DNA of 39,042 nucleotides from Escherichia phage CurroJimenez_Bas106. Shown piece by piece: positions 10,387 through 37,590 of the stretch. Position 1 is the first letter of the stretch; each line of letters opens with the position of its first letter. The notes under the pieces were generated by a model. That model was not told where the DNA came from and made no database searches. It saw only the letters and a program-made list of their open reading frames with translations. The DNA is taken from the sequence record PQ850599.1; one strand, written 5' to 3'. A program made the position numbers and the translations under genes.

Positions 10387-11682
10387 ATGGCTACTTGGCA
10401 AGGATCAAATGGCGGATTGTTAGCTGGTATCGGCGGCGTAAACTCAAACGCTCCGAACGTAAATGACATCGGCAATACGCTTCAGCTTATCAGGCAGAAC
10501 AATGATATTGAGCGTTCAGGCGCTAACAATGTTGGGCTGACTGCTTTGCAAGGCCTTTCAGGTATTGCGGGGGTGTTTCAGCAGGAAAAGCAGGCTCAGC
10601 GGCAGAAAGAATTTCAGCAGGCATACGCTAATGCTTATGCGTCTGGTGATCGCGGTGCTTTGCGTCAGTTAGCTACTCAATATCCAGACCAGATTGAATC
10701 CGTTCGTAAAGGCATGGGATTCATTGATGAAGACCAGCGCAATTCCATCGGTACCTTAGCGGCTGGCGCCCGCCTTGCGGCATCGTCTCCAGAAGCGATG
10801 CAATCATGGCTGCAAAACAACGCCAAGGAACTGACTCGCGTCGGTGTTGACCCTAACAGCGTTGCTCAGATGTATCAGCAGAATCCTTCAGGATTTGGTG
10901 AGTTTGTTGATCACCTTGGGATGGCTGCTCTTGGTCCGATTGATTACTTCAATGTTCAGGACAAGATGGCTGGTCGTGAGATTGACCGAGGCAGACTGGC
11001 AGAGACAATCCGCAGCAATCAGGCAGGAGAAGCACTAACAGCTCGAGGTCAGGACATCCAGATACGTGGACAGAACATCAGCGCACAGAATGCTGCTCTT
11101 TCCCGAGAAATACAAAGAGCAGAATTACAAGAAAAGGCTCTGGACAGACAGATAGCCAGAGAAAGCAATCAGTTAAAGCTTGAAGAGCTAAAACAGAAAC
11201 AGGCAGATGTTCGGCAAAAGGCTGACATAGCCCGCGCTGACAGGCAGGCCGCCGCTCAGGGTGCAGTTGATACGTTCAGCACCGCGCTTGATTCTCTCAA
11301 CGAGATAGAGCAAAGCCCCGGCCTTTCAAAAGCAGTAGGAATTCGCTCAGCGTTTCCGACAGTTCCTGGCTCTGATGCGGCTAACTTTGAAGCAAGACTC
11401 GACACCTTTAAAGCTCAAACTTTCCTTCCTATGGTGCAGTCCCTTAAGGGTATGGGGGCTCTTTCAGATGCTGAGGGTAAAAAATTATCCGATGCGGTTG
11501 GTGCCCTAAGCCCCAAAATGAGCGAAAAGGCTTTTCGTGACTCTATCGGAAAGATTAGAAATCAGCTTGAAAGCAAGTTGAGCACTGTTAAAAAACAGTT
11601 TGATTATCAGGAGCCAGTACAGAATACGCCAGGACAACAATCTCCTGCTGGCAGTAACTTTTCTTCACTATGGGGTGATTAA
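10387..11682 (+). CDS. ejection protein, P22 gp20-like
   Basis: 431 aa, coiled-coil rich; position between gp7-like and gp16-like genes. Confidence 0.75.
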
Positions 11683-14174
11683 TGGCTAAAGCATGGAAAG
11701 ATGTTATCGCCTCTCCACAGTATCAGGCGTTAGCACCAGAACAAAAAGCGCAGGCTCAGGAACAATACTTCAATGAAGTCGTTGCCCCGCAAGCCGGAGA
11801 AAATGCAGAGCAGGCAAAACAAGCGTTTTACTCTGCTTACCCTAGAGGTCTGCTAGAGAAGGGTAATATTGACATTCACAATCGGCCTGTTGTTAAAAAC
11901 TCTGATGGCAGCATTAGCACTGTGCGGAGCATGTCTACCAATATAGATGGTAGAGAGGTGCTGATTCCTACCGTTAGTGATGATGGTCGCATTATGTCTG
12001 ATGATGAAGCTATTGATAACTTCATGAGGACGGGAAAGCATCTTGGTATGTTCGACAATCCTGACGATGCCACTGCATATGCGGAGAGTCTGCACAACCA
12101 GCAAGCTGATGAATACCTCCCTAGGAAGAATCAAGCTACACAACAGCCTGTACAGCAAAGTACACAGGCAGCGCCTCAGCAGCAGAAAGAAGAACCATCA
12201 TTGATGCAACAAGCTGGCGATTGGCTCACAGGTGGTCAAAGTGCAGGGCAAATTGCAGAGCAGGCTGGTCGTGGTCTGGTAAACATACCATTTGACGTAT
12301 TGCAGGGTGGCGCAAGTCTGATTAATGCAATCAGCCAGGGGATTGGTGGCCCCAAGGTTTTGGATGATGTTTATCGCCCTGTCGATCGACCGACAGACCC
12401 TTACGCGCAAGCCGGTGAAACAATTGGTGGGTATCTCCTGCCAATTGGCACAGCGGCAAAAGCTGCTGGAGCGCCAGCAAAGCTCGCTGGAGATATCGGT
12501 TCCGCAGGAAACATGATTGCAGGTTCTCTTGCTGATGCTGCAAATCAGGATGGCGATTTTGCACAAAATGCCGCCATTAACGGTGGTATCAATATTGGTG
12601 CTCAGGGGATACTTTCTGGGGCTGGAAGGATCTTAACCTCTAAATCACCTCAAGTTCTTGGTGGCGGGGCAATAAATTCCGCTGCTGATGTTTCGAAAAT
12701 GGCAAAGTCTGGTACAGGAAGAGAGATTATTGCCAGACAGTCAGCTAACGTGTCAGACGAAATAGCAAAAGCAGCAGATACTGCTGGAATAGATATCAAC
12801 GCATTAACTCCTGGCATGAGATCAGGTAGTCGTGGTCTTGCTCAGGCGGAGGGGATTCTGGCGTCAAAGCCCGGAATTACACAGGATGCACACACCAAAG
12901 CATTCAGTGAAATAGAGTCGAAATTTAACTCAGCATTGGATGAGTTTGGGGCTGAAGCAGGAACTGCATCAGAAAAAAGTGCAGCCATAAAACAAAGGGT
13001 TTTGGCAAGTATTGATAAAATGAAAAATTCAGAAAAGGCCGCATGGAATAGCGTCCGCTCCACGATGCCTGACGCAAAGGCCAGAATGTCAAACCTGAAC
13101 GCTACAATTCAGGGTGATATTTTGGCTGGCATGCCGCTAACTCCTGAGATGAAACAATTCGCATCTGCTTATGCTAAAACTGGTAAAAAAGGAATCACGT
13201 TTGATGCCATGAAGGCATGGCGAAGTAAACTTGCTGACGCAGAGCAGAAGTATATAAGGTCTGGTGAGGCAAATACGGCAAGGCGCATGGCTGAGCTTCG
13301 TGATGCAGCAACGGAAGATATGCGCATAATGGCTCAAAATGGCGGTTTTCTTGATGACTGGCAAAAAGCTAATGATCTGTCAAAGGCAAGATTTACAGCA
13401 CAAGAACAGGCTGAAGCAGCGTTTGGTAGAGACCTTGCAACTGATCAGTTGGTAACTAATGGCTCTAAGGCGTTACAGGGTTCAGCAAAAAGTGGAACAG
13501 GTCAGTTCCATAAAATAATAAGCGCCCTACCTGAGTCGGAACGCGCGCCAGCAATTGCATCAATATTACAAGATGCAATGTCGCAAGGGGTACGCGGAGG
13601 TAAGTCTGAAGAGGCTGGAATTAAGCATATCGCGACTATTCTTACCCCACAAAACGTGAAGGCAATTAGTCGATATTCTCCAGAACTTGGCAGGATTACA
13701 AGTTCATACGGAGAACTTGCACGAGCAGCAACAAAGCCACTTCGATATGTTGAACAGACAGGGCGATCTATGCCAGCCATTAGCACTCTTGAGAATGGCC
13801 TTCATCCAGTTTTAGAGAGCGCATTGTCTGGCGCTTTTAGAACTACTGGCACTATCGCAGGGTTCTCTGGAGGAGGAGTTATTGGAGCAATAGCGGGTGG
13901 CGCTGCAGGTGGAGCAATTGATGCAATGGCAAAAGGAGCGATAGCGAAATTATCCGCAACTAGAAGCGGTCGTTACGCTATTGAAAAGGCTGTTCAAGAG
14001 GCAACAAAGGCCGTTAAGGTTGGGGCAAGTGATGGTGCATTAGCGGCGGCGGAACGCAGATTTATGGCAAATAAAGCCGCCGTAAAAGCAATACGCGATG
14101 CTATTGGTAGCGATGAATTCAATCGCTTGTCGAGAGCTGGTATTGTCGCCTCGTTAAGCGGTATGAATGAATAG
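11682..14174 (+). CDS. ejection protein, P22 gp16-like (enlarged, 830 aa)
   Basis: ATGA-overlapping start with gp20; Ala/Gly-rich; last virion gene before tailspike; about 220 aa longer than the 609 aa I recall for P22 gp16. Confidence 0.7.
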
Positions 14175-20294: not shown

Positions 20295-20834
20295 TCACTC
20301 CCCCTTCACGCCAATGCCAGCGGCGCGGTCAATACGTTCAATTTCTGCCAGAATAAGAGCGCCAGCTTTTACTAAGTCGCGGCGTGCTCCTGATTGCTTC
20401 CACCAGTCAGGAGACCACGGCCAATGTGCTGGAGTGGAGAAACCTTGGTTGTGCGCATGAATTGCGTAACAAGCCGCTGCATCTGCTAATTCGCTATTTT
20501 GATATGCGTTGTCATGTTCAGGAGTCCATCCTTCAACCGACTGTTGCCGCTGGCGTTCTGCTACCACATCAAGAATTGCGGGATTGAATGCGCCCCCCTC
20601 CAGTTCTGCTATGCGCTTCTCTGCGGCTTCCAACTCATCCAGCATCGCCAGCACGGTAGTGGGGTTTGCTGCGGAGTTCAGCGCGTTCAAGGCAGTGATA
20701 TCTGCATCAAGCTGAGTTCCTTCTGCCAGTGAGATATCGAAAATGTCATCAGGCGGCATAACACTAAGGCGCTCATGTGCGCCAACTGCTGCCGCTGCGA
20801 TTTCACGCAGCGCCTGTTTGTCGATGTTGCTCAT
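20295..20834 (-). CDS. Ead/Ea22-like protein (179 aa)
   Basis: N-terminus MSNIDKQALREIAAAA is paralogous to [15 protein letters not shown] of the next gene; start overlaps upstream stop. Confidence 0.6.
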   Translation of the reverse strand: MSNIDKQALREIAAAAVGAHERLSVMPPDDIFDISLAEGTQLDADITALNALNSAANPTTVLAMLDELEAAEKRIAELEGGAFNPAILDVVAERQRQQSVEGWTPEHDNAYQNSELADAAACYAIHAHNQGFSTPAHWPWSPDWWKQSGARRDLVKAGALILAEIERIDRAAGIGVKGE

Positions 20835-21475
20835 TGGGCGGCCTCCTTGCGAATCTGCTCCCTGAACAAGCGGGCTGAGACGATGATGTCTCTGATGCGT
20901 ACTGATTTTTCGTCGAACTGCTCACCACCGTTTTTAATATGCGCATCCAGTTCTGCACTGTGATGCCGAATGAAAGCGTTGAGGTCATGCGCACGCACTT
21001 CAGCCAGGAAAGCGTCGGTGGCTGGGGTTTTGTTATCTGACTCCAGCCACTGGTTGTAGTAATAATCGAACATGCCAGTAGGATAACCACATCCGCCGTG
21101 CACGTGGTCTTTCATAGCAGAACCACACATGCAGTAGTCATTGTCAGTATTACTAATGATGTCGATAAGTTGCTGTGTCCGTTGCTTCAACATCGCATTC
21201 TCCGCCGCCAGCGCCGCAAACTTCTCGTGTGCCAACTTAACAGCCGCATCAGCCTGCTTAATTGACTCAGTCGCTTTCTGGTGGTCTTCGGCCAGCCCTG
21301 CTAAATCAGCCTCCAGTTCGGCTAGGCGTTCATTTAATGCATCTCGTTCATCCAGTAGAGCCAGCACAACCTGAGGTGTGACTTTCATACGAAATGCCAG
21401 CAATTTTTGAGGTGTTGCTACTGTTTCAATTGCTACTGCTGCCTCACGCAGTACCTGATAGTCAATCTTGCTCAC
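20831..21475 (-). CDS. Ead/Ea22-like coiled-coil protein (214 aa)
   Basis: Long coiled-coil (ERLAELEADLAGLAEDHQKA...), Cys/His-containing C-terminal region; ATGA overlaps with both neighbours. Confidence 0.6.
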   Translation of the reverse strand: MSKIDYQVLREAAVAIETVATPQKLLAFRMKVTPQVVLALLDERDALNERLAELEADLAGLAEDHQKATESIKQADAAVKLAHEKFAALAAENAMLKQRTQQLIDIISNTDNDYCMCGSAMKDHVHGGCGYPTGMFDYYYNQWLESDNKTPATDAFLAEVRAHDLNAFIRHHSAELDAHIKNGGEQFDEKSVRIRDIIVSARLFREQIRKEAAQ

Positions 21476-22053
21476 TGGTTGCCTCCTTTACGAAGCTGTT
21501 CTGCGATATCTTCGAGAACGCCATCAGAGAATGAGCGATCAAAATCGCCTTCCGGCGCATTAGCCATAAACTCAGTAGAGGTAAGAATCATCCTGGCAAT
21601 ATCCGCGGCGTTCTTCGCAGTATCATCAATAAAACCAGCATCCCAGGCAGCCAGCATTCTGTTCGCCACAAAGTAAGCGCCTTCCTTGCGTGCTTCAGTC
21701 TTCACTTCATCCCAAAAAGCGTCGGTGACTTGGGTTTGCGGCATCCTTCCGTCTATTGCGCAGATATACGCATCAGATAGTTCACCCTGCTCGCCGTCAA
21801 ACACGTAGCAACTCTGTACGATAAATTTATTCAGCCACGCATTCTCCACAGCCAGCGCCGCGCACTTGGCCTCAAGGTTATCAATCGTGATTCCAGCAGA
21901 ACGACACTCCCGCAACGCCGTTTCTAGTTTTGATTCAAGTTCACCGAACTTACGGACAAGATATTCAGCGTTTGTTTCGTTAACCTTTAAATCTCGGGGG
22001 ATGCATTTACCTTTCAGAAAACCATCCATCTCAATTAGTGACATTTGTTTCAT
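21472..22053 (-). CDS. Ea22-like coiled-coil protein (193 aa)
   Basis: Coiled-coil segment [36 protein letters not shown]; third member of the tandem family. Confidence 0.55.
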
Positions 22054-22214
22054 TTTTTCCCACTCCGCAACATCGCATTCAGATATTTGTTTTGATTTAC
22101 TGACGGAAAAGAATTTCTCTTAAGCAATTCCTCTCTCGATGGCATTGGCTTTACGCGTTGGCGAATAATCATTTCTGCTGGAAGAATGCCGGGATTGTAT
22201 GCAAGTCCTCTCAT
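22050..22214 (-). CDS. hypothetical protein (54 aa)
   Basis: ATG at 22214 with GAGGA 8 nt upstream and 10 nt after the upstream stop; the longer ORF-track version (to 22367) would overlap the preceding gene by about 140 nt. Confidence 0.4.
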
Positions 22215-22224
22215 GGTAAATTCC

Positions 22225-22521
22225 TCAGTCATTACTGATAGCGCCATAGCGTGAGCGGTAATTACGCAGGCGCGGGTCGATATATTCAGGGAGGTTGGTA
22301 TATGTGGCTTTGCGGAATGGTCGGATTGATGTCTGGTAAATTCGCTCTCGTTCTTCTTTCTCTGCAAGCCATATACAATGGCGAAATTCCTTTTCCTCTT
22401 TCGTTTCCTGCGGTAGCGACATTATCAGGTCGTAGTTTTTTCTGAATTTATCCAGCACCTCCGATACGGAATTGCCGGAACAGCGGCGCGCGTCGTCCGC
22501 ACCATACAGAGGCGCTGGCAT
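22225..22521 (-). CDS. hypothetical protein (98 aa)
   Basis: ATG with GGAGA SD; charged protein; no family recognised. Confidence 0.5.
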
Positions 22522-25235: not shown

Positions 25236-26204
25236 TTAGTAGGTTATTTTTGTTGCGAATACTTTGCCTTTTACGATGGCTGTTATGATATTTTTAGCAA
25301 CATCTTCTGATGCGCCAACCTTGATAAGGTCAGCAAGTATTTTGTTATTTACTTCTTTCCGGTGAGCTTTATCCTTTGCTCTACACTCTTCTTCTTCCTT
25401 GATTCTTTTTTCTTCTGCTATTCTGGCTTGCTCTTTTGCTTCAGCCTCGCGCCGGATTCGTTCAGCCTCCTCCTGTGCTTTTCGGCGTTCTGCTTCAATT
25501 GCCGCCTGCTTTTCTCTTTCAGCTCGTTCTGCTGCCTCTTTTGCTTCGCGCTGTGCTCGTTGCTCGGCTTCAATGCGTTCACGCTCTGCACGTTCCGCTG
25601 CGGCCTTAGCTTCTGCTTCTCGCCTTGCTGCTGCTTCAATTTCGGCTTTTGCCTTTGCTTCGGCTTCTGCTCTGGCTTTCTCTTCAGCTTCTCTTTTTAA
25701 GCGTTCTTCATGCTCTCGCTTTTCCTGCTCCGCTTTGAGTCTTGCCTCTTCTCTTTGGCGGTCAAATTCGCGATCCATCAAAATAGCTATTTCATGGTCA
25801 GACTCAATTTGCTTTGCGAGAGCTTCAGCTGCTGCCTTAGCTTCTTCTTCGGCTTTAATCCGCGCCTGTTCCTCCTCATAATCAGTAAGAGGCTGGCGAG
25901 CCTTGGCTTTCAGTTCATCAAGGCGATCGCGCACTGTCTTGCGGTTGGCATCAATTAGCTTTGGAATTTCCTTCAGTTCAGCAACAAGGTCTTTGCCAAG
26001 ACCATCGAGATATGTTTTCGTCTGCGCAACTTTATACGCCAGAGAAGCGATCTCCTTTCTGCCCTTTGCCGTTGTGATATCAGGCACAAAGGACATAACT
26101 TCACGTTCAACCTTTTGAAGGATTTCTTCAATCTGGTCTGCAGACTGAAATACAGTCATTGCATTTGCTTTTTCAATAAAAACTAAGTCTGTTACTTCAC
26201 TCAT
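25236..26204 (-). CDS. hypothetical coiled-coil protein with Glu/Ala/Arg/Lys-rich low-complexity core
   Basis: Start at ATG 26204 (MSEVTDLVFIEK...) with GGAGG 5 nt upstream; ORF-track start at 26258 is a TTG running into the upstream terminator hairpin. Confidence 0.65.
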   Translation of the reverse strand: MSEVTDLVFIEKANAMTVFQSADQIEEILQKVEREVMSFVPDITTAKGRKEIASLAYKVAQTKTYLDGLGKDLVAELKEIPKLIDANRKTVRDRLDELKAKARQPLTDYEEEQARIKAEEEAKAAAEALAKQIESDHEIAILMDREFDRQREEARLKAEQEKREHEERLKREAEEKARAEAEAKAKAEIEAAARREAEAKAAAERAERERIEAEQRAQREAKEAAERAEREKQAAIEAERRKAQEEAERIRREAEAKEQARIAEEKRIKEEEECRAKDKAHRKEVNNKILADLIKVGASEDVAKNIITAIVKGKVFATKITY

Positions 26205-26216
26205 ATATCCTCCATC

Positions 26217-26243
26217 AAAAAAATCGCCCTCACATCGGAGGGC
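26217..26243 (-). terminator. rho-independent terminator (minus strand) upstream of the coiled-coil gene
   Basis: Minus strand CCCTCC-GATGTG-AGGG(C) hairpin followed by GATTTTTTTG. Confidence 0.6.
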
Positions 26244-26338
26244 AAAGAAGATTTCCAATAATCAGAACAAGTCGGCTCCTGTTTAGTTACGAGCGACATT
26301 GCTCCGTGTATTCACTCGTTGGAATGAATACACAGTGC

Positions 26339-35402: not shown

Positions 35403-35911
35403 GAGAACTAAACCTCACCAAAGAGCAGCACGAGTGGCTGAATGGCTGGCTTGAACTGTGGGGCGCATGGGTTTATTCAGGTCGTCTGGAAAAGCGCATG
35501 AGCAGCGTAATAGCGAAGTTCATGGAGAGCGTAGAGCCGGGAAGAGTTATGACAAGGCCAATGTGTAATGATGATGATGGAATGTTGATTTCTCAGGTCG
35601 TCGATTCCGTCATGTGCATTGACAAGAAAGCCTTTGGCATCCTCCTCAGCTACTACGCTCATGGTTCATCTAAGCGAGCAATTGCATCCTACTATCACGC
35701 GACTGCAAAGCCACGCAAGATGTGTGGACGTGGTGGTGAGGGATGGAGAAAACCTTCACTGGCAACCTGTAGAAATGAAATTGACGACATCCTGAAAGCG
35801 TCGTTATTTGTTTTGTACCAACCAATGCAAAATGCTTTCAAAATGCGTAAACGTGTTGAGAAAGTTAAGCATGTTGCTGTTAAAAGCCTTGACATGCAAT
35901 TAGCCATTTAG
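35393..35911 (+). CDS. Q: late antiterminator Q (phage 21/933W/P22 gp23-type, not lambda-Q type)
   Basis: 172 aa; WLELWGAWV...[12 protein letters not shown] resembles the 933W-type Q antiterminator; late promoter and tRNAs follow. Confidence 0.7.
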
Positions 35912-35918
35912 CCATAAT
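35889..35918 (+). promoter_or_regulatory. late promoter pR'-like
   Basis: -35 TTGACA (35889-35894), 18-bp spacer, -10 CATAAT (35913-35918), at the 3' end of Q and upstream of the tRNAs and lysis genes. Confidence 0.5.
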
Positions 35919-35927
35919 TAGAGGGTA

Positions 35928-35970
35928 AGCTGCCGTTAGTGACTCTTAAGTTGCAACGGTGGCTTTTTTT
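35928..35970 (+). terminator. candidate tR'-like terminator downstream of the late promoter
   Basis: Imperfect stem GCTGCCGTT...AACGGTGGC (two G-U pairs) followed by TTTTTTTATTT; stem assignment uncertain. Confidence 0.4.
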
Positions 35971-35974
35971 ATTT

Positions 35975-36049
35975 GGGTCAGTCGTATAAAGGTCATTACG
36001 GAAGGCTGTTAACCTTCTTATCGTGGTTCGAGTCCACGCTGTCCCGCCA
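35975..36049 (+). tRNA. tRNA-Asn (anticodon GUU)
   Basis: Hand-folded 75 nt cloverleaf: acceptor GGGTCAG/CTGTCCC (one T-T mismatch), anticodon stem GAAGG/CCTTC, loop CTGTTAA, T-arm CGTGG-TTCGAGT-CCACG, discriminator G, encoded CCA. Confidence 0.7.
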
Positions 36050-36054
36050 AATAT

Positions 36055-36130
36055 GCTGGTTTAGCTCCAATGGTAGAGCAGTCGCCTTGTAAGCGAATGG
36101 GTAGCGGTTCAAGTCCGTTAACCAGCACCA
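36055..36130 (+). tRNA. tRNA-Thr (anticodon UGU)
   Basis: Hand-folded 76 nt cloverleaf: perfect acceptor GCTGGTT/AACCAGC, D-stem GCTC/GAGC, anticodon loop CTTGTAA, T-arm AGCGG-TTCAAGT-CCGTT, discriminator A, encoded CCA. Confidence 0.75.
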
Positions 36131-36219
36131 TAACTGAGCCGTAGCCACTGGCTATCCTGAACTCATCAGTGATAGTTACGCTGCGGCCTTCTACACATGA
36201 TCTTCGTGAAAGCGGGTGA

Positions 36220-36253
36220 CAGGAGGTCGCGCTAACAACCTCCTGCCGTTTTG
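36220..36253 (+). terminator. terminator-like hairpin between tRNAs and holin
   Basis: CAGGAGG-(12 nt loop)-CCTCCTG followed by CCGTTTTGCC. Confidence 0.45.
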
Positions 36254-36372
36254 CCCGTGCATATCGGTCACGAACAAATCTGATTACTAAACACAGTAGC
36301 CTGGATTTGTTCTATCAGTAATCGACCTTATTCCTAATTAAATAGAGCAAATCCCCTTATTGGGGGTAAGAC

Positions 36373-36696
36373 ATGAAGATGCCAGAAAAACATGACCTGT
36401 TAGCCGCCATTCTCGCGGCAAAGGAACAAGGCATCGGGGCAATCCTTGCGTTTGCAATGGCGTACCTTCGCGGCAGATATAATGGCGGTGCGTTTACAAA
36501 AACAGTAATCGACGCAACGATGTGCGCCATTATCGCCTGGTTCATTCGTGACCTTCTCGACTTCGCCGGACTAAGTAGCAATCTCGCTTATATAACGAGC
36601 GTGTTCATCGGCTACATCGGTACTGACTCGATTGGTTCGCTTATCAAACGCTTCGCTGCTAAAAAAGCCGGAGTAGAAGATGGTGGAAATCAATAA
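36373..36696 (+). CDS. S: holin S (lambda-type, dual-start S107/S105)
   Basis: 107 aa [34 protein letters not shown]..., near-identical to lambda S including the Met1-Lys2-Met3 dual start. Confidence 0.95.
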
Positions 36697-37156
36697 TCAA
36701 CGTAAGGCGTTCCTCGATATGCTGGCGTGGTCAGAGGGAACTGATAACGGACGGCAGAAAACCAGAAATCATGGTTATGACGTCATTGTAGGCGGAGAGC
36801 TATTCACTGATTACTCTGATCACCCTCGCAAACTTGTCACGCTAAACCCAAAACTCAAATCAACAGCCGCCGGGCGCTACCAGCTTCTTTCCCGTTGGTG
36901 GGATGCCTATCGTAAGCAGCTTGGCCTGAAAGACTTCTCTCCGAAAAGCCAGGACGCTGTGGCATTGCAGCAGATTAAGGAGCGTGGCGCTTTACCGATG
37001 ATTGATCGCGGTGATATCCGTCAGGCAATCGACCGTTGCAGCAATATCTGGGCTTCACTGCCGGGGGCTGGTTATGGTCAGTTCGAGCATAAGGCTGACA
37101 ACCTGATTGCAAAATTCAAAGAAGCTGGCGGAATGGTCAGAGAGATTGAGGTATGA
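36680..37156 (+). CDS. R: endolysin R (lytic transglycosylase, lambda-type)
   Basis: 158 aa [34 protein letters not shown]..., near-identical to lambda R. Confidence 0.95.
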
Positions 37157-37590
37157 GCAGAGTAACCGCGATTATCTCCGCTCTGGTTATCTGCATCATC
37201 GTCTGCCTGTCATGGGCTGTTAATCACTACCGTGATAACGCCATCGCCTACAAAGAGCAGCGCGATAAGGCCGCATCCACAATTGCTGACATGCAGAAGC
37301 GTCAACGTGATGTAGCAGAACTCGACGCCAGATACACAAAGGAGCTTGCTGATGCTAACGAGACTATCGAAAGTCTCCGTGCTGATGTTTCTGCTGGTCG
37401 TAAGCGCCTGCAAGTCGCCGCCACCTGTGCAAAGTCAACGACCGGAGCCAGCGGCATGGGCGATGGAGAAAGCCCAGGACTTACAGCAGATGCTGAACTC
37501 AATTATTACCGTCTCAGAAGTGGAATCGACAGGTTAACCGCGCAGGTTAACTACCTGCAGGAATACATCAGGACGCAATGCCTTCGATGA
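37153..37590 (+). CDS. Rz: spanin, inner-membrane subunit Rz
   Basis: 145 aa; N-terminal TM helix then coiled coil; lambda-Rz-like N-terminus; overlaps R stop. Confidence 0.85.
37346..37537 (+). CDS. Rz1: spanin, outer-membrane lipoprotein subunit Rz1 (embedded in Rz, +1 frame)
   Basis: 63 aa; lipobox LVVSAC followed by Pro-rich mature region; fully embedded in Rz as in lambda. Confidence 0.75.

Follow-up and report, generated by a model that had tools for sequence, protein, structure and literature searches.

The tRNA genes at the locus

The DNA analyzed here, 39,042 nt of Escherichia phage CurroJimenez_Bas106 (sequence record PQ850599.1; this whole stretch is referred to as the window), comes from a mosaic P22-like E. 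coli phage whose virion genes are closest to those of Dewey, Louie, APC_JM3.2 and IME10. Between the gene for the late antiterminator Q and the holin gene the window carries a cassette of two genes, one for tRNA-Asn(GUU) and one for tRNA-Thr(UGU), which were the only tRNAs called by ARAGORN (anticodons gtt and tgt; Table 1). Both genes aligned with the full-length Rfam model RF00005 (positions 1-71), scoring 55.3 bits (E = 2e-9) for tRNA-Asn and 61.5 bits (E = 4e-11) for tRNA-Thr against a gathering score of 29, with E-values calculated for the window. The cloverleaf was the minimum-free-energy structure of each tRNA, and a CCA end is encoded in the DNA of both (36047-36049 and 36128-36130). 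The original prediction, made from the nucleotide sequence alone, had placed two tRNAs with encoded CCA ends at 35975-36130, in the interval from Q to the holin gene and downstream of the late promoter, and had proposed a tRNA predictor as the check. ARAGORN and Rfam returned the same coordinates for both genes, a result well past what chance would give, and the coordinates of Q, the late promoter PR', the terminator tR' and the holin gene agree with the proposed location.

Family membership was judged by a 7-bp acceptor stem, G18-G19 in the D-arm, an anticodon loop of 7 nt in which position 33 is U and position 37 a purine, and a T-loop of the form GTTCRANYC. By score and cloverleaf both genes belong to RF00005, with a few deviations: U4.U69 in the acceptor stem and U13.U22 in the D-stem of tRNA-Asn, and in tRNA-Thr a G27.A43 mismatch that leaves an anticodon stem of only 4 bp, together with a C at position 14 of the D-loop. 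The single acceptor-stem mismatch noticed in the original prediction is U4.U69; U13.U22 and G27.A43 had been overlooked. Nearly all transfer RNAs carry A14 as the partner of U8. In the window tRNA-Thr this position (36068) is C, and across 18 tRNA-Thr variants from viral contigs, among the matches listed, it was C in 16, U in two and A in none. C14 is tolerated, because an identical tRNA has been reported to be functional. The same position falls in the D-loop region proposed as a contact for AriB, the nuclease of the PARIS system.

For threonyl-tRNA synthetase (ThrRS) the specific identity elements are G1-C72, C2-G71, G35 and U36. The window tRNA-Thr has all of these, and A73, and is the same as host thrU at these positions. 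In more general terms, ThrRS identity resides in acceptor-stem pairs and anticodon nucleotides, and E. coli asparaginyl-tRNA synthetase (AsnRS) depends on the anticodon G34-U35-U36 with G73 (review PMC9976931). The GUU anticodon and G73 are both present in the window tRNA-Asn. We conclude that both tRNA genes are real and functional, and charging by host AsnRS and ThrRS is predicted from their identity elements. A 50-amino-acid open reading frame (ORF) lies antisense over both tRNA genes (35996-36148, minus strand); it is almost certainly spurious and was left out of the codon counts described below.

Table 1. Coordinates of the tRNA cassette and of the late-operon features around it in the window.
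Feature	Coordinates	Strand	Description
Antiterminator Q, 172 aa	35393..35911	+	Pfam PF06530 Phage_antitermQ, 1.3e-25
Late promoter PR'	35889..35918	+	-35 TTGACA 35889-35894, -10 CATAAT 35913-35918; consensus match 11/12
Intrinsic terminator tR'	35927..35974	+	Hairpin 35927-35965, U-run 35964-35970; ends 4 nt before tRNA-Asn
tRNA-Asn(GUU)	35975..36049	+	75 nt; discriminator G73 (base 36046); encoded CCA; anticodon arm GAAGG/CUGUUAA/CCUUC
Inter-tRNA spacer AAUAU	36050..36054	+	5 nt; from sequence
tRNA-Thr(UGU)	36055..36130	+	76 nt; discriminator A73; encoded CCA; U28-A42; equals published 'tRNA-Thr21'
Structured leader between cassette and holin gene	36131..36372	+	Hairpins ~36138-36187 and ~36212-36258; right boundary of the cassette module
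Holin S, 107 aa	36373..36696	+	Pfam PF05106 Phage_holin_3_1, 2.4e-30; first gene of the lysis cassette
Endolysin	36680..37156	+	ORF; same gene annotated in Sf6
Rz	37153..37590	+	ORF; same gene annotated in Sf6

Relatives of the cassette and borders of the module

A segment of 531 bases around the cassette matched 180 phage records, many of which annotate tRNA-Asn and tRNA-Thr between Q and the holin gene (Sf6, BTP1, SPN9CC, vB_SosS_Oslo and Kapi1), and the Sf6 record calls its tRNA pair 'similar to phage 21'. The cassette was also found in 369 of 5,426 complete E. coli genomes, nearly always on the chromosome, with tRNA-Thr and tRNA-Asn annotated there by the NCBI pipeline. Since the pair is annotated in so many phages and prophages, the feature was already known: the cassette is the phage-21/Sf6-type tRNA-Asn/tRNA-Thr pair, and the window has the phage-21-type order of Q, PR', tR', tRNA-Asn, about 5 nt of spacer, tRNA-Thr and lysis genes.

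In direct alignments both tRNA genes were 100% identical in phage 21, Sf6 and HK446, and the tRNA-Asn was identical also in phage L. Phage 21 (OL657228.1) equals the window at 155 of 156 nt of the cassette, the single difference lying in the spacer (AACAU instead of AAUAU), and has the same gene order, an identical tR' and the same first 62 nt downstream. However, the 3' end of its Q gene is only ~71% identical, there is no match to PR', the putative Q-binding elements are different, and its lysis genes include the pinholin S21 where the window has a lambda-type S. Sf6, SfI, BTP1, SPN9CC, Kapi1, HK446 and further P22-like or lambdoid phages have a cassette with 97-100% identity to that of the window, and most of their records annotate the tRNA pair. 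HK446 joins an identical cassette to a lambda-type Q, PR' and tR'. The GenBank record of HK446 (L012, JQ086372.1; cassette at 711-866) annotates neither tRNA, though both are present and identical to those of the window.

A four-way alignment placed the left edge of the cassette at the U-run of tR' and the right edge at a block starting AACTGAGCCGTAGCC. HK75 has Q, PR', tR' and the downstream block as in the window, but its tRNAs are replaced by ~200 nt of filler without tRNA genes, and lambda has a related filler of ~160 nt at the cassette site. Judged from these alignments, the cassette is a compact mobile module. Both fillers span from the tR' U-run to AACTGAGCC (~421-629 in HK75, L011; ~335-495 in lambda, L013). 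At its end the HK75 filler has a perfect T-arm-like element (GCCGG-TTCGATT-CCGGC) with a 20-bit, sub-threshold match to the tRNA/tmRNA clan of Rfam. As a candidate hidden tRNA gene it was rejected on the sub-threshold score and the absence of an ARAGORN call, and it is possibly what remains of an older tRNA gene.

Conservation, covariation and decayed variants

Between the window and Sf6 there were no differences at 151 tRNA positions, compared with 15 at 431 flank positions (p = 0.015), and the flanks of the identical tRNAs of phage 21, Sf6 and HK446 range from identical to unrelated. Homologs were collected from viral contigs with a 16-mer from the D-arm of tRNA-Asn, which yielded at least 120 loci, about 100 of them true cassettes; about 18 chance matches were discarded. 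The 18 distinct tRNA-Thr and 14 distinct tRNA-Asn variants used for covariation, all closely related, are those among the matches listed, and the Asn D-arm is invariant in them by design of the search. Pairs altered on both sides were 3-70, 5-68 and 6-67 in tRNA-Thr and 6-67, 7-66 and 28-42 in tRNA-Asn. Slid controls gave 0-1 such pairs, and none of 500 shuffles matched the observed covariation score.

Within the same set of variants the mismatches are nearly invariant: G27.A43 is unpaired in 18/18 tRNA-Thr sequences, as are U4.U69 in 13/14 and U13.U22 (in the anchored D-arm) in 14/14 tRNA-Asn sequences. Because they are fixed in the lineage while neighboring pairs compensate, these mismatches are conserved characters and not decay. 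The same evidence bears on the idea that one or both genes are decaying pseudogenes, with tRNA-Asn as the main suspect for its two stem mismatches. That idea could draw on U4.U69, U13.U22, C14 and G27.A43, and on the second gene of phage L and ST64T-type phages, which is truly degenerate. However, both window genes score far above the Rfam threshold, they are 100% identical across phages with diverged flanks, their mismatches are lineage-fixed amid compensating pairs, and the tRNA-Thr sequence is active in published experiments (PMC12445682; bioRxiv 10.64898/2026.07.10.737580), so that we regard decay as very improbable.

In Salmonella phages of the phage L/ST64T type the tRNA-Asn is identical to that of the window, and the second gene is a 72-nt diverged homolog of tRNA-Thr annotated as tRNA-Leu(TAA). 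In phage L (L003, cII-101, 981-1052; also L122) this second gene scored 42 bits with Rfam, has an anticodon loop of 4 nt and was not called by ARAGORN; from its sequence it is probably a pseudogene. This lineage retains tRNA-Asn without its tRNA-Thr partner. Among viral contigs (L023, L052, L110, L121 and L131; cassette positions 81-234), one cassette variant has a chimeric Thr gene, phage-type at positions 1-17 and host-thrU-type at 27-76, with a broken anticodon stem and no ARAGORN call. Next to it comes a tRNA-Gly(UCC) gene identical to K-12 glyT at 71 of 75 positions, and the arrangement looks as if the cassette had recombined with the thrU-tyrU-glyT operon of the host. The tRNAs that the Old nuclease of phage P2 reportedly depletes include Gly(UCC). 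Further cassette variants were Asn-Phe-Thr-Arg(UCU), with or without Gly, and Asn-Thr-Arg.

The tRNA-Thr and the P2 Old nuclease

P2 Old cuts host tRNA-Thr(UGU), and phage tRNA-Thr(UGU) genes rescue the cells (Govande et al. 2025, PMC12445682). Resistance to Old requires both that the CNG motif is altered and that the anticodon stem is shortened; tRNA-Thr21 of phage 21, which has a shorter stem and the changes C28U/G42A, protects against P2 Old, and the identical sequence restores ACA decoding in vivo (PMC12445682). In a 2026 preprint the Thr(UGU) tRNA of HK446 gave 'strong counter-defense' against Old for HK97, HK542 and Bas34, and the tRNA-Thr(UGU) of Bas32 stayed intact while host tRNA-Thr(UGU) was degraded as in the control (bioRxiv 10.64898/2026.07.10.737580). 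As the phage tRNA is intact while the host tRNA is still degraded, phage tRNAs supplement the pool and do not inhibit Old. The window tRNA-Thr is equal in sequence to both of the experimentally tested tRNAs, those of phage 21 and HK446.

The anticodon arm of the window tRNA-Thr reads G27 U28 C29 G30 C31 / CUUGUAA / G39 C40 G41 A42 A43, compared with ACUGA / CUUGUAA / UCAGU in the host. Both features of Old resistance are present: UCG/CGA stands where the host has CUG/CAG at 28-30/40-42, and G27.A43 reduces the stem to 4 bp. They were invariant in 18/18 of the tRNA-Thr variants listed. The window tRNA-Thr also has UAAGCG in place of the host UAAUCA. Compared with host thrU, the anticodon stem is where the tRNA-Thr diverges most: 8 of its 10 positions differ, against 9 of the 32 positions that make up the remaining stems (p = 0.008), with none of eight changed in the D-stem. 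It has been shown in the literature that a tRNA-Thr of this sequence is resistant to Old and that, supplied from a plasmid, it rescues cells as well as phages.

The tRNA-Asn and the PARIS nuclease AriB

AriB, the nuclease of PARIS, cleaves between positions 40 and 41 in the motif U36-A-A-U39-C40|N41, and changes at U39, at position 41 or at U16 impair cleavage (Belukhina et al., PMC12409363). The Lys, Thr and Asn tRNAs of phage T5 jointly neutralize PARIS (PMC12409363), a system that has been reported to restrict lambda (PMC9122126). Host tRNA-Asn(GUU) was also included in the comparison of Old cleavage kinetics, in which tRNA-Thr(UGU) was cut fastest (Govande et al., PMC12445682). With Thr(UGU) and Asn(GUU) reported for both nucleases, the isoacceptors of the cassette are thus targets of both.

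The recognition features of these nucleases, the paired CNG motif, U36-A-A-U39-C40|N41 and U16, are lost in the window tRNA-Asn compared with the host: where host asnT has CGG/CCG, UAAUCC and U16, the window gene has AAG/CUU, UAACCU and A16. Neither window tRNA retains the known recognition features, and both differ from their host counterparts at positions 39, 41 and 16. On this comparison, the tRNA-Asn may be a nuclease-resistant replacement for host tRNA-Asn(GUU).

Codon usage

The original prediction proposed that the tRNAs supplement codons used by late genes and described the tailspike and gp16 as rich in Asn and Thr. Codon counts of 57 window genes, selected by a greedy long-ORF rule, were compared with those of 64 annotated K-12 genes from a 50-kb region, with ribosomal and translation genes kept separate. 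Per 1000 codons, ACA occurred 14.3 times in the phage; ordinary K-12 genes had 9.4 and ribosomal genes 3.0, which makes the phage ~1.5-fold enriched over the ordinary genes. ACA made up 0.29 of the Thr codons compared with 0.17 in the host (p = 3e-6). There was no real excess of Asn codons (AAU 21.1 vs 20.6, ratio 1.03; AAC 25.2 vs 20.4, ratio 1.24). Nor were late genes above early ones in the ACA share of Thr codons (0.26 and 0.33, respectively). ACA ranked only 13th among over-represented codons, and those at the top, AGA, AGG, GGA, AAG and AUA, have no tRNA in the cassette. The tailspike is indeed rich in both amino acids (8.1% Asn, 7.7% Thr), but the gp16-like protein (11682-14174), at 4.1% and 4.8%, lies near the genome mean of 4.6% and 4.9%. 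The proposal therefore stands in part, for ACA and for the tailspike, and not for Asn codons, for late genes in particular or for gp16.

A study of phage SfI independently arrived at the same picture, with an ACA bias, no Asn bias and the remark that the tRNA-Asn is of unclear significance (PMC3636060). Because ACA is enriched and Asn codons are not, codon supply may contribute in the case of ACA but does not explain the pair. A pure supply explanation, in which the tRNAs raise the amount of decoder for phage-favored codons with no link to defense, can point to the ACA figures in this phage and in SfI (PMC3636060), to the Asn- and Thr-rich tailspike, and to the single thrU-type gene annotated in the K-12 thrU operon examined. 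Set against it are the Asn codons, the rank of ACA, the unserved top codons and the late genes that are no richer in ACA, as well as the conserved G27.A43 and the loss of nuclease motifs, which it leaves unexplained. Furthermore, in the Old experiments extra host tRNA-Thr(UGU) gave no rescue and the phage version did (PMC12445682; bioRxiv 10.64898/2026.07.10.737580), so sequence matters and not supply alone. We consider codon supplementation an unlikely explanation of the cassette, although one that retains appreciable weight.

Position and expression in the late operon

The late-operon surroundings (Table 1) bear on when the tRNAs would be made. Sf6 gene 59, the homolog of the window Q, is annotated as a phage-21-Q-like antiterminator, and PR' is annotated at the homologous place in Sf6 and HK75. 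Between the -35 and -10 elements of PR' lie the adjacent 8-mers ATTAGCCA (35899-35906) and TTTAGCCA (35907-35914), which are putative Q-binding elements; in phage 21 the Q-binding elements ATTGAGCA and AATGAGCA occupy this place between -35 and -10. This suggests that the window has an Sf6-type variant of Q and Q-binding-element specificity, distinct from that of phage 21 despite the identical tR' and tRNAs. The tR' segment has the same sequence as the terminators annotated in phage 21, Sf6 and HK75, and its hairpin has a folding energy of -20.2 kcal/mol (z = -5.4; none of 200 shuffles was as stable). Because the tRNAs lie behind the Q-controlled tR' in the late transcription unit, late, Q-dependent expression is expected from the layout. 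A literature search on the expression of the BTP1 tRNAs found nothing relevant.

The leader segment that follows the cassette is also structured (36131-36260, z = -4.1). The block after the cassette is common to lambda, HK75 and HK446, with or without tRNAs, and its first 62 nt occur in phage 21 as well. The second leader hairpin is followed by CCGUUUUG, which gives it a terminator-like look. Placement of the cassette within the late leader, between the tR' U-run (4 nt away) and this conserved structured block, would be compatible with a role of the tRNA folds as punctuation for RNA processing, that is, as entry sites for RNase P or RNase E that detach the Q-modified leader or set the 5' end of the late mRNA. 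However, lambda and HK75 lack tRNAs between the same flanks, so tRNA processing is unneeded for late expression. Moreover, conservation extends to the anticodon loops, the identity elements and the CCA ends, the pattern of covariation in the stems is that of working tRNAs, and the tRNA-Thr decodes ACA in vivo (PMC12445682; bioRxiv 10.64898/2026.07.10.737580). A function confined to RNA processing is therefore improbable.

A probable role as nuclease-proof replacement tRNAs

Taken together, we consider it likely that the cassette provides late-expressed, nuclease-proof replacements for host tRNAs, which is the best explanation of the pair, and counter-defense is better supported than codon supplementation. 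The replacement role has been demonstrated for an identical tRNA-Thr and is extended to tRNA-Asn by analogy. Under this explanation, transcription from PR' would yield the tRNAs mainly upon Q-dependent read-through of tR', during synthesis of the virion and lysis proteins. The tRNAs would be excised from the late transcript by host RNase P and 3' exonucleases, with no need for CCA addition, and host AsnRS and ThrRS would charge them for decoding of AAC/AAU and ACA. The main benefit would then be that late translation is sustained when host tRNA-Thr(UGU), and probably tRNA-Asn(GUU), is destroyed by Toprim anticodon-stem nucleases of the P2 Old or PARIS AriB kind, encoded by prophages or satellites. 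The altered anticodon stems and D-loops would let the phage copies escape cleavage, so that they act as replacements for host tRNAs and not as nuclease inhibitors, and improved decoding of ACA would be a plausible secondary benefit.

Several findings weigh against this explanation, the first of them concerning tRNA-Thr and Old. P2's own old allele was present in 17 of the 5,426 E. coli genomes, compared with 369 for the cassette; with P2 old this rare, Old in the strict sense cannot be the sole selective agent, and broader tRNA-targeting systems are needed. In the preprint, tRNA-Thr alone neither rescued lambda nor relieved Old toxicity in recB cells, and its authors doubt that the HK446 tRNA is primarily anti-Old (bioRxiv 10.64898/2026.07.10.737580). 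No homolog of Gp33, the HK446 protein that triggers Old, was found in the window by tblastn; a 62-amino-acid ORF at the equivalent position is unrelated to it. Gam was not found in PHROG and Pfam scans of ~20 early-region ORFs, which recovered N, cIII, Kil, Erf, SSB and nucleases. For tRNA-Asn, the anticodon stem keeps its full 5 bp with a divergence from the host that does not exceed that of the other stems (p = 0.47), the five tRNAs that Old depleted most did not include Asn (bioRxiv 10.64898/2026.07.10.737580), and a literature search turned up no experiment on a tRNA-Asn of the window type. Lastly, the cassette has no tRNA-Lys(UUU), and the set of T5-type anti-PARIS tRNAs is therefore incomplete. 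tRNA-Lys(UUU) is the prime target of AriB and was supplied in every PARIS rescue reported (PMC12409363), so the cassette alone should not defeat the PARIS of E. coli B185.

The early region of the window has other genes in common with HK446. An Abc2 homolog (22228-22521, minus strand), 97% identical to HK446 gp30, was found by tblastn only, and beside it lies a homolog of gp28 (22053-22214, minus strand; 94%). A homolog of Oad2, the HK446 inhibitor of Old, is encoded at 21472-22053 (minus strand) and is 48.5% identical; the Oad2 homolog of HK75, 54% identical, was reported to be insufficient (bioRxiv 10.64898/2026.07.10.737580). Three ORFs between 20295 and 22053 (minus strand), including 20295-21475 (minus strand), have the PHROG families phrog_14548, 368 and 614 in common and therefore seem to form an array of paralogs. 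A 340-amino-acid ORF (25236-26258, minus strand), located between cIII and the N-proximal early genes, with a long, highly charged, repetitive middle rich in Glu, Ala, Lys and Arg, matched only PHROG families of unknown function (phrog_1376 and 21365) and no Pfam family.

The preprint authors themselves raised another explanation for HK446 (bioRxiv 10.64898/2026.07.10.737580), namely that the tRNA compensates for a host tRNA gene damaged by prophage integration. HK446 and SfI do integrate at thrW, a tRNA-Thr gene. However, none of the carriers examined has a recorded integration site in a tRNA-Asn or thrU gene, and compensation gives no reason for the tRNA-Asn. thrW encodes the CGU isoacceptor and not UGU, attP normally rebuilds the tRNA 3' end, and phage 21 integrates elsewhere. 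Behind the late terminator the genes are also in the wrong place for expression in a lysogen. Around the window int gene an Rfam scan with permissive E-values found no tRNA fragment, and a megablast of the attP side against E. coli genomes gave only IntS and S24-peptidase contexts. On the last two results integration-site compensation was rejected as weak, and we hold it to be very improbable.

For the tRNA-Asn in particular, we tentatively suggest, as a possibility short of even chances, that it is the second half of a two-part counter-defense module directed against Toprim anticodon-stem nucleases of the Old/PARIS family, which have exactly Thr(UGU) and Asn(GUU) among their common targets, with its lineage-fixed oddities as evasion features. 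These would be the loss of both CNG motifs, C39, A16, U4.U69 and U13.U22, comparable to the changes G27.A43 and U28-A42 proven in tRNA-Thr. In lambdoid and P22-like phages, nuclease-proof tRNAs would then be exchanged generally at the slot behind tR', a view that fits the Asn-Thr, Asn-Phe-Thr-Arg(UCU) and Gly(UCC)-carrying variants found there.

As a discovery the cassette adds little, since genes of exactly these sequences carry annotations in phage 21, Sf6, SfI, BTP1 and hundreds of E. coli prophages, and experimental work of 2025-2026 established what the tRNA-Thr does. The usual label of codon supplementation nevertheless fits the cassette poorly, and a better description would be that temperate phages carry nuclease-proof copies of tRNAs that are destroyed by rival prophages and satellites. 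The point sharpened here is the tRNA-Asn, which was left unexplained by the SfI authors and overlooked in the study of HK446 and Old, and which is predicted from its sequence to escape cleavage of the Old/PARIS type. The preprint describes HK446 as encoding a single tRNA (bioRxiv 10.64898/2026.07.10.737580).

Comparison with known tRNA-carrying phages

Stx-converting lambdoid phages carry tRNA genes of the ileX/ileZ-argN-argO type downstream of Q, which are classically explained by the supply of rare codons. As far as they are covered by their citation in PMC3636060, these tRNAs likewise lie in the late region but are decoders of rare Ile and Arg codons and match over-used rare codons. T5 supplies the same isoacceptors as the window, Thr(UGU) and Asn(GUU), and in the tRNA-Thr of both U39 is replaced by G39. 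However, T5 has an array of ~24 tRNAs expressed early from their own promoters, whereas the window has two tRNAs behind a late terminator, and the sequences are not closely related. The T5 tRNA-Asn was left out of this comparison, as its annotated coordinates gave a poorly pairing anticodon arm.

An Asn(GUU) gene followed by a Thr(UGU) gene, as in the window, also occurs in unrelated phages: in P1 (trnA-trnT), in N4-like phages (Asn-Ser-Thr-Pro) and in Klebsiella phage Mulock (Asn-Phe-Thr-Arg). The Mulock pair is homologous to that of the window, 91-92% identical and likewise upstream of a holin gene. In P1 and the N4-like phages the Thr gene is only ~80-86% identical to that of the window and the genomic contexts are different; the P1 tRNA-Thr retains both CNG motifs and a 5-bp stem, and the P1 tRNA-Asn retains UAAUCA. 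G39, where the host has U39, was found in every phage tRNA-Thr examined, including those of P1, the N4-like phages and Mulock. We count the recurrence of the Asn-then-Thr pair in P1, N4-like phages and Mulock in favor of a role in counter-defense.

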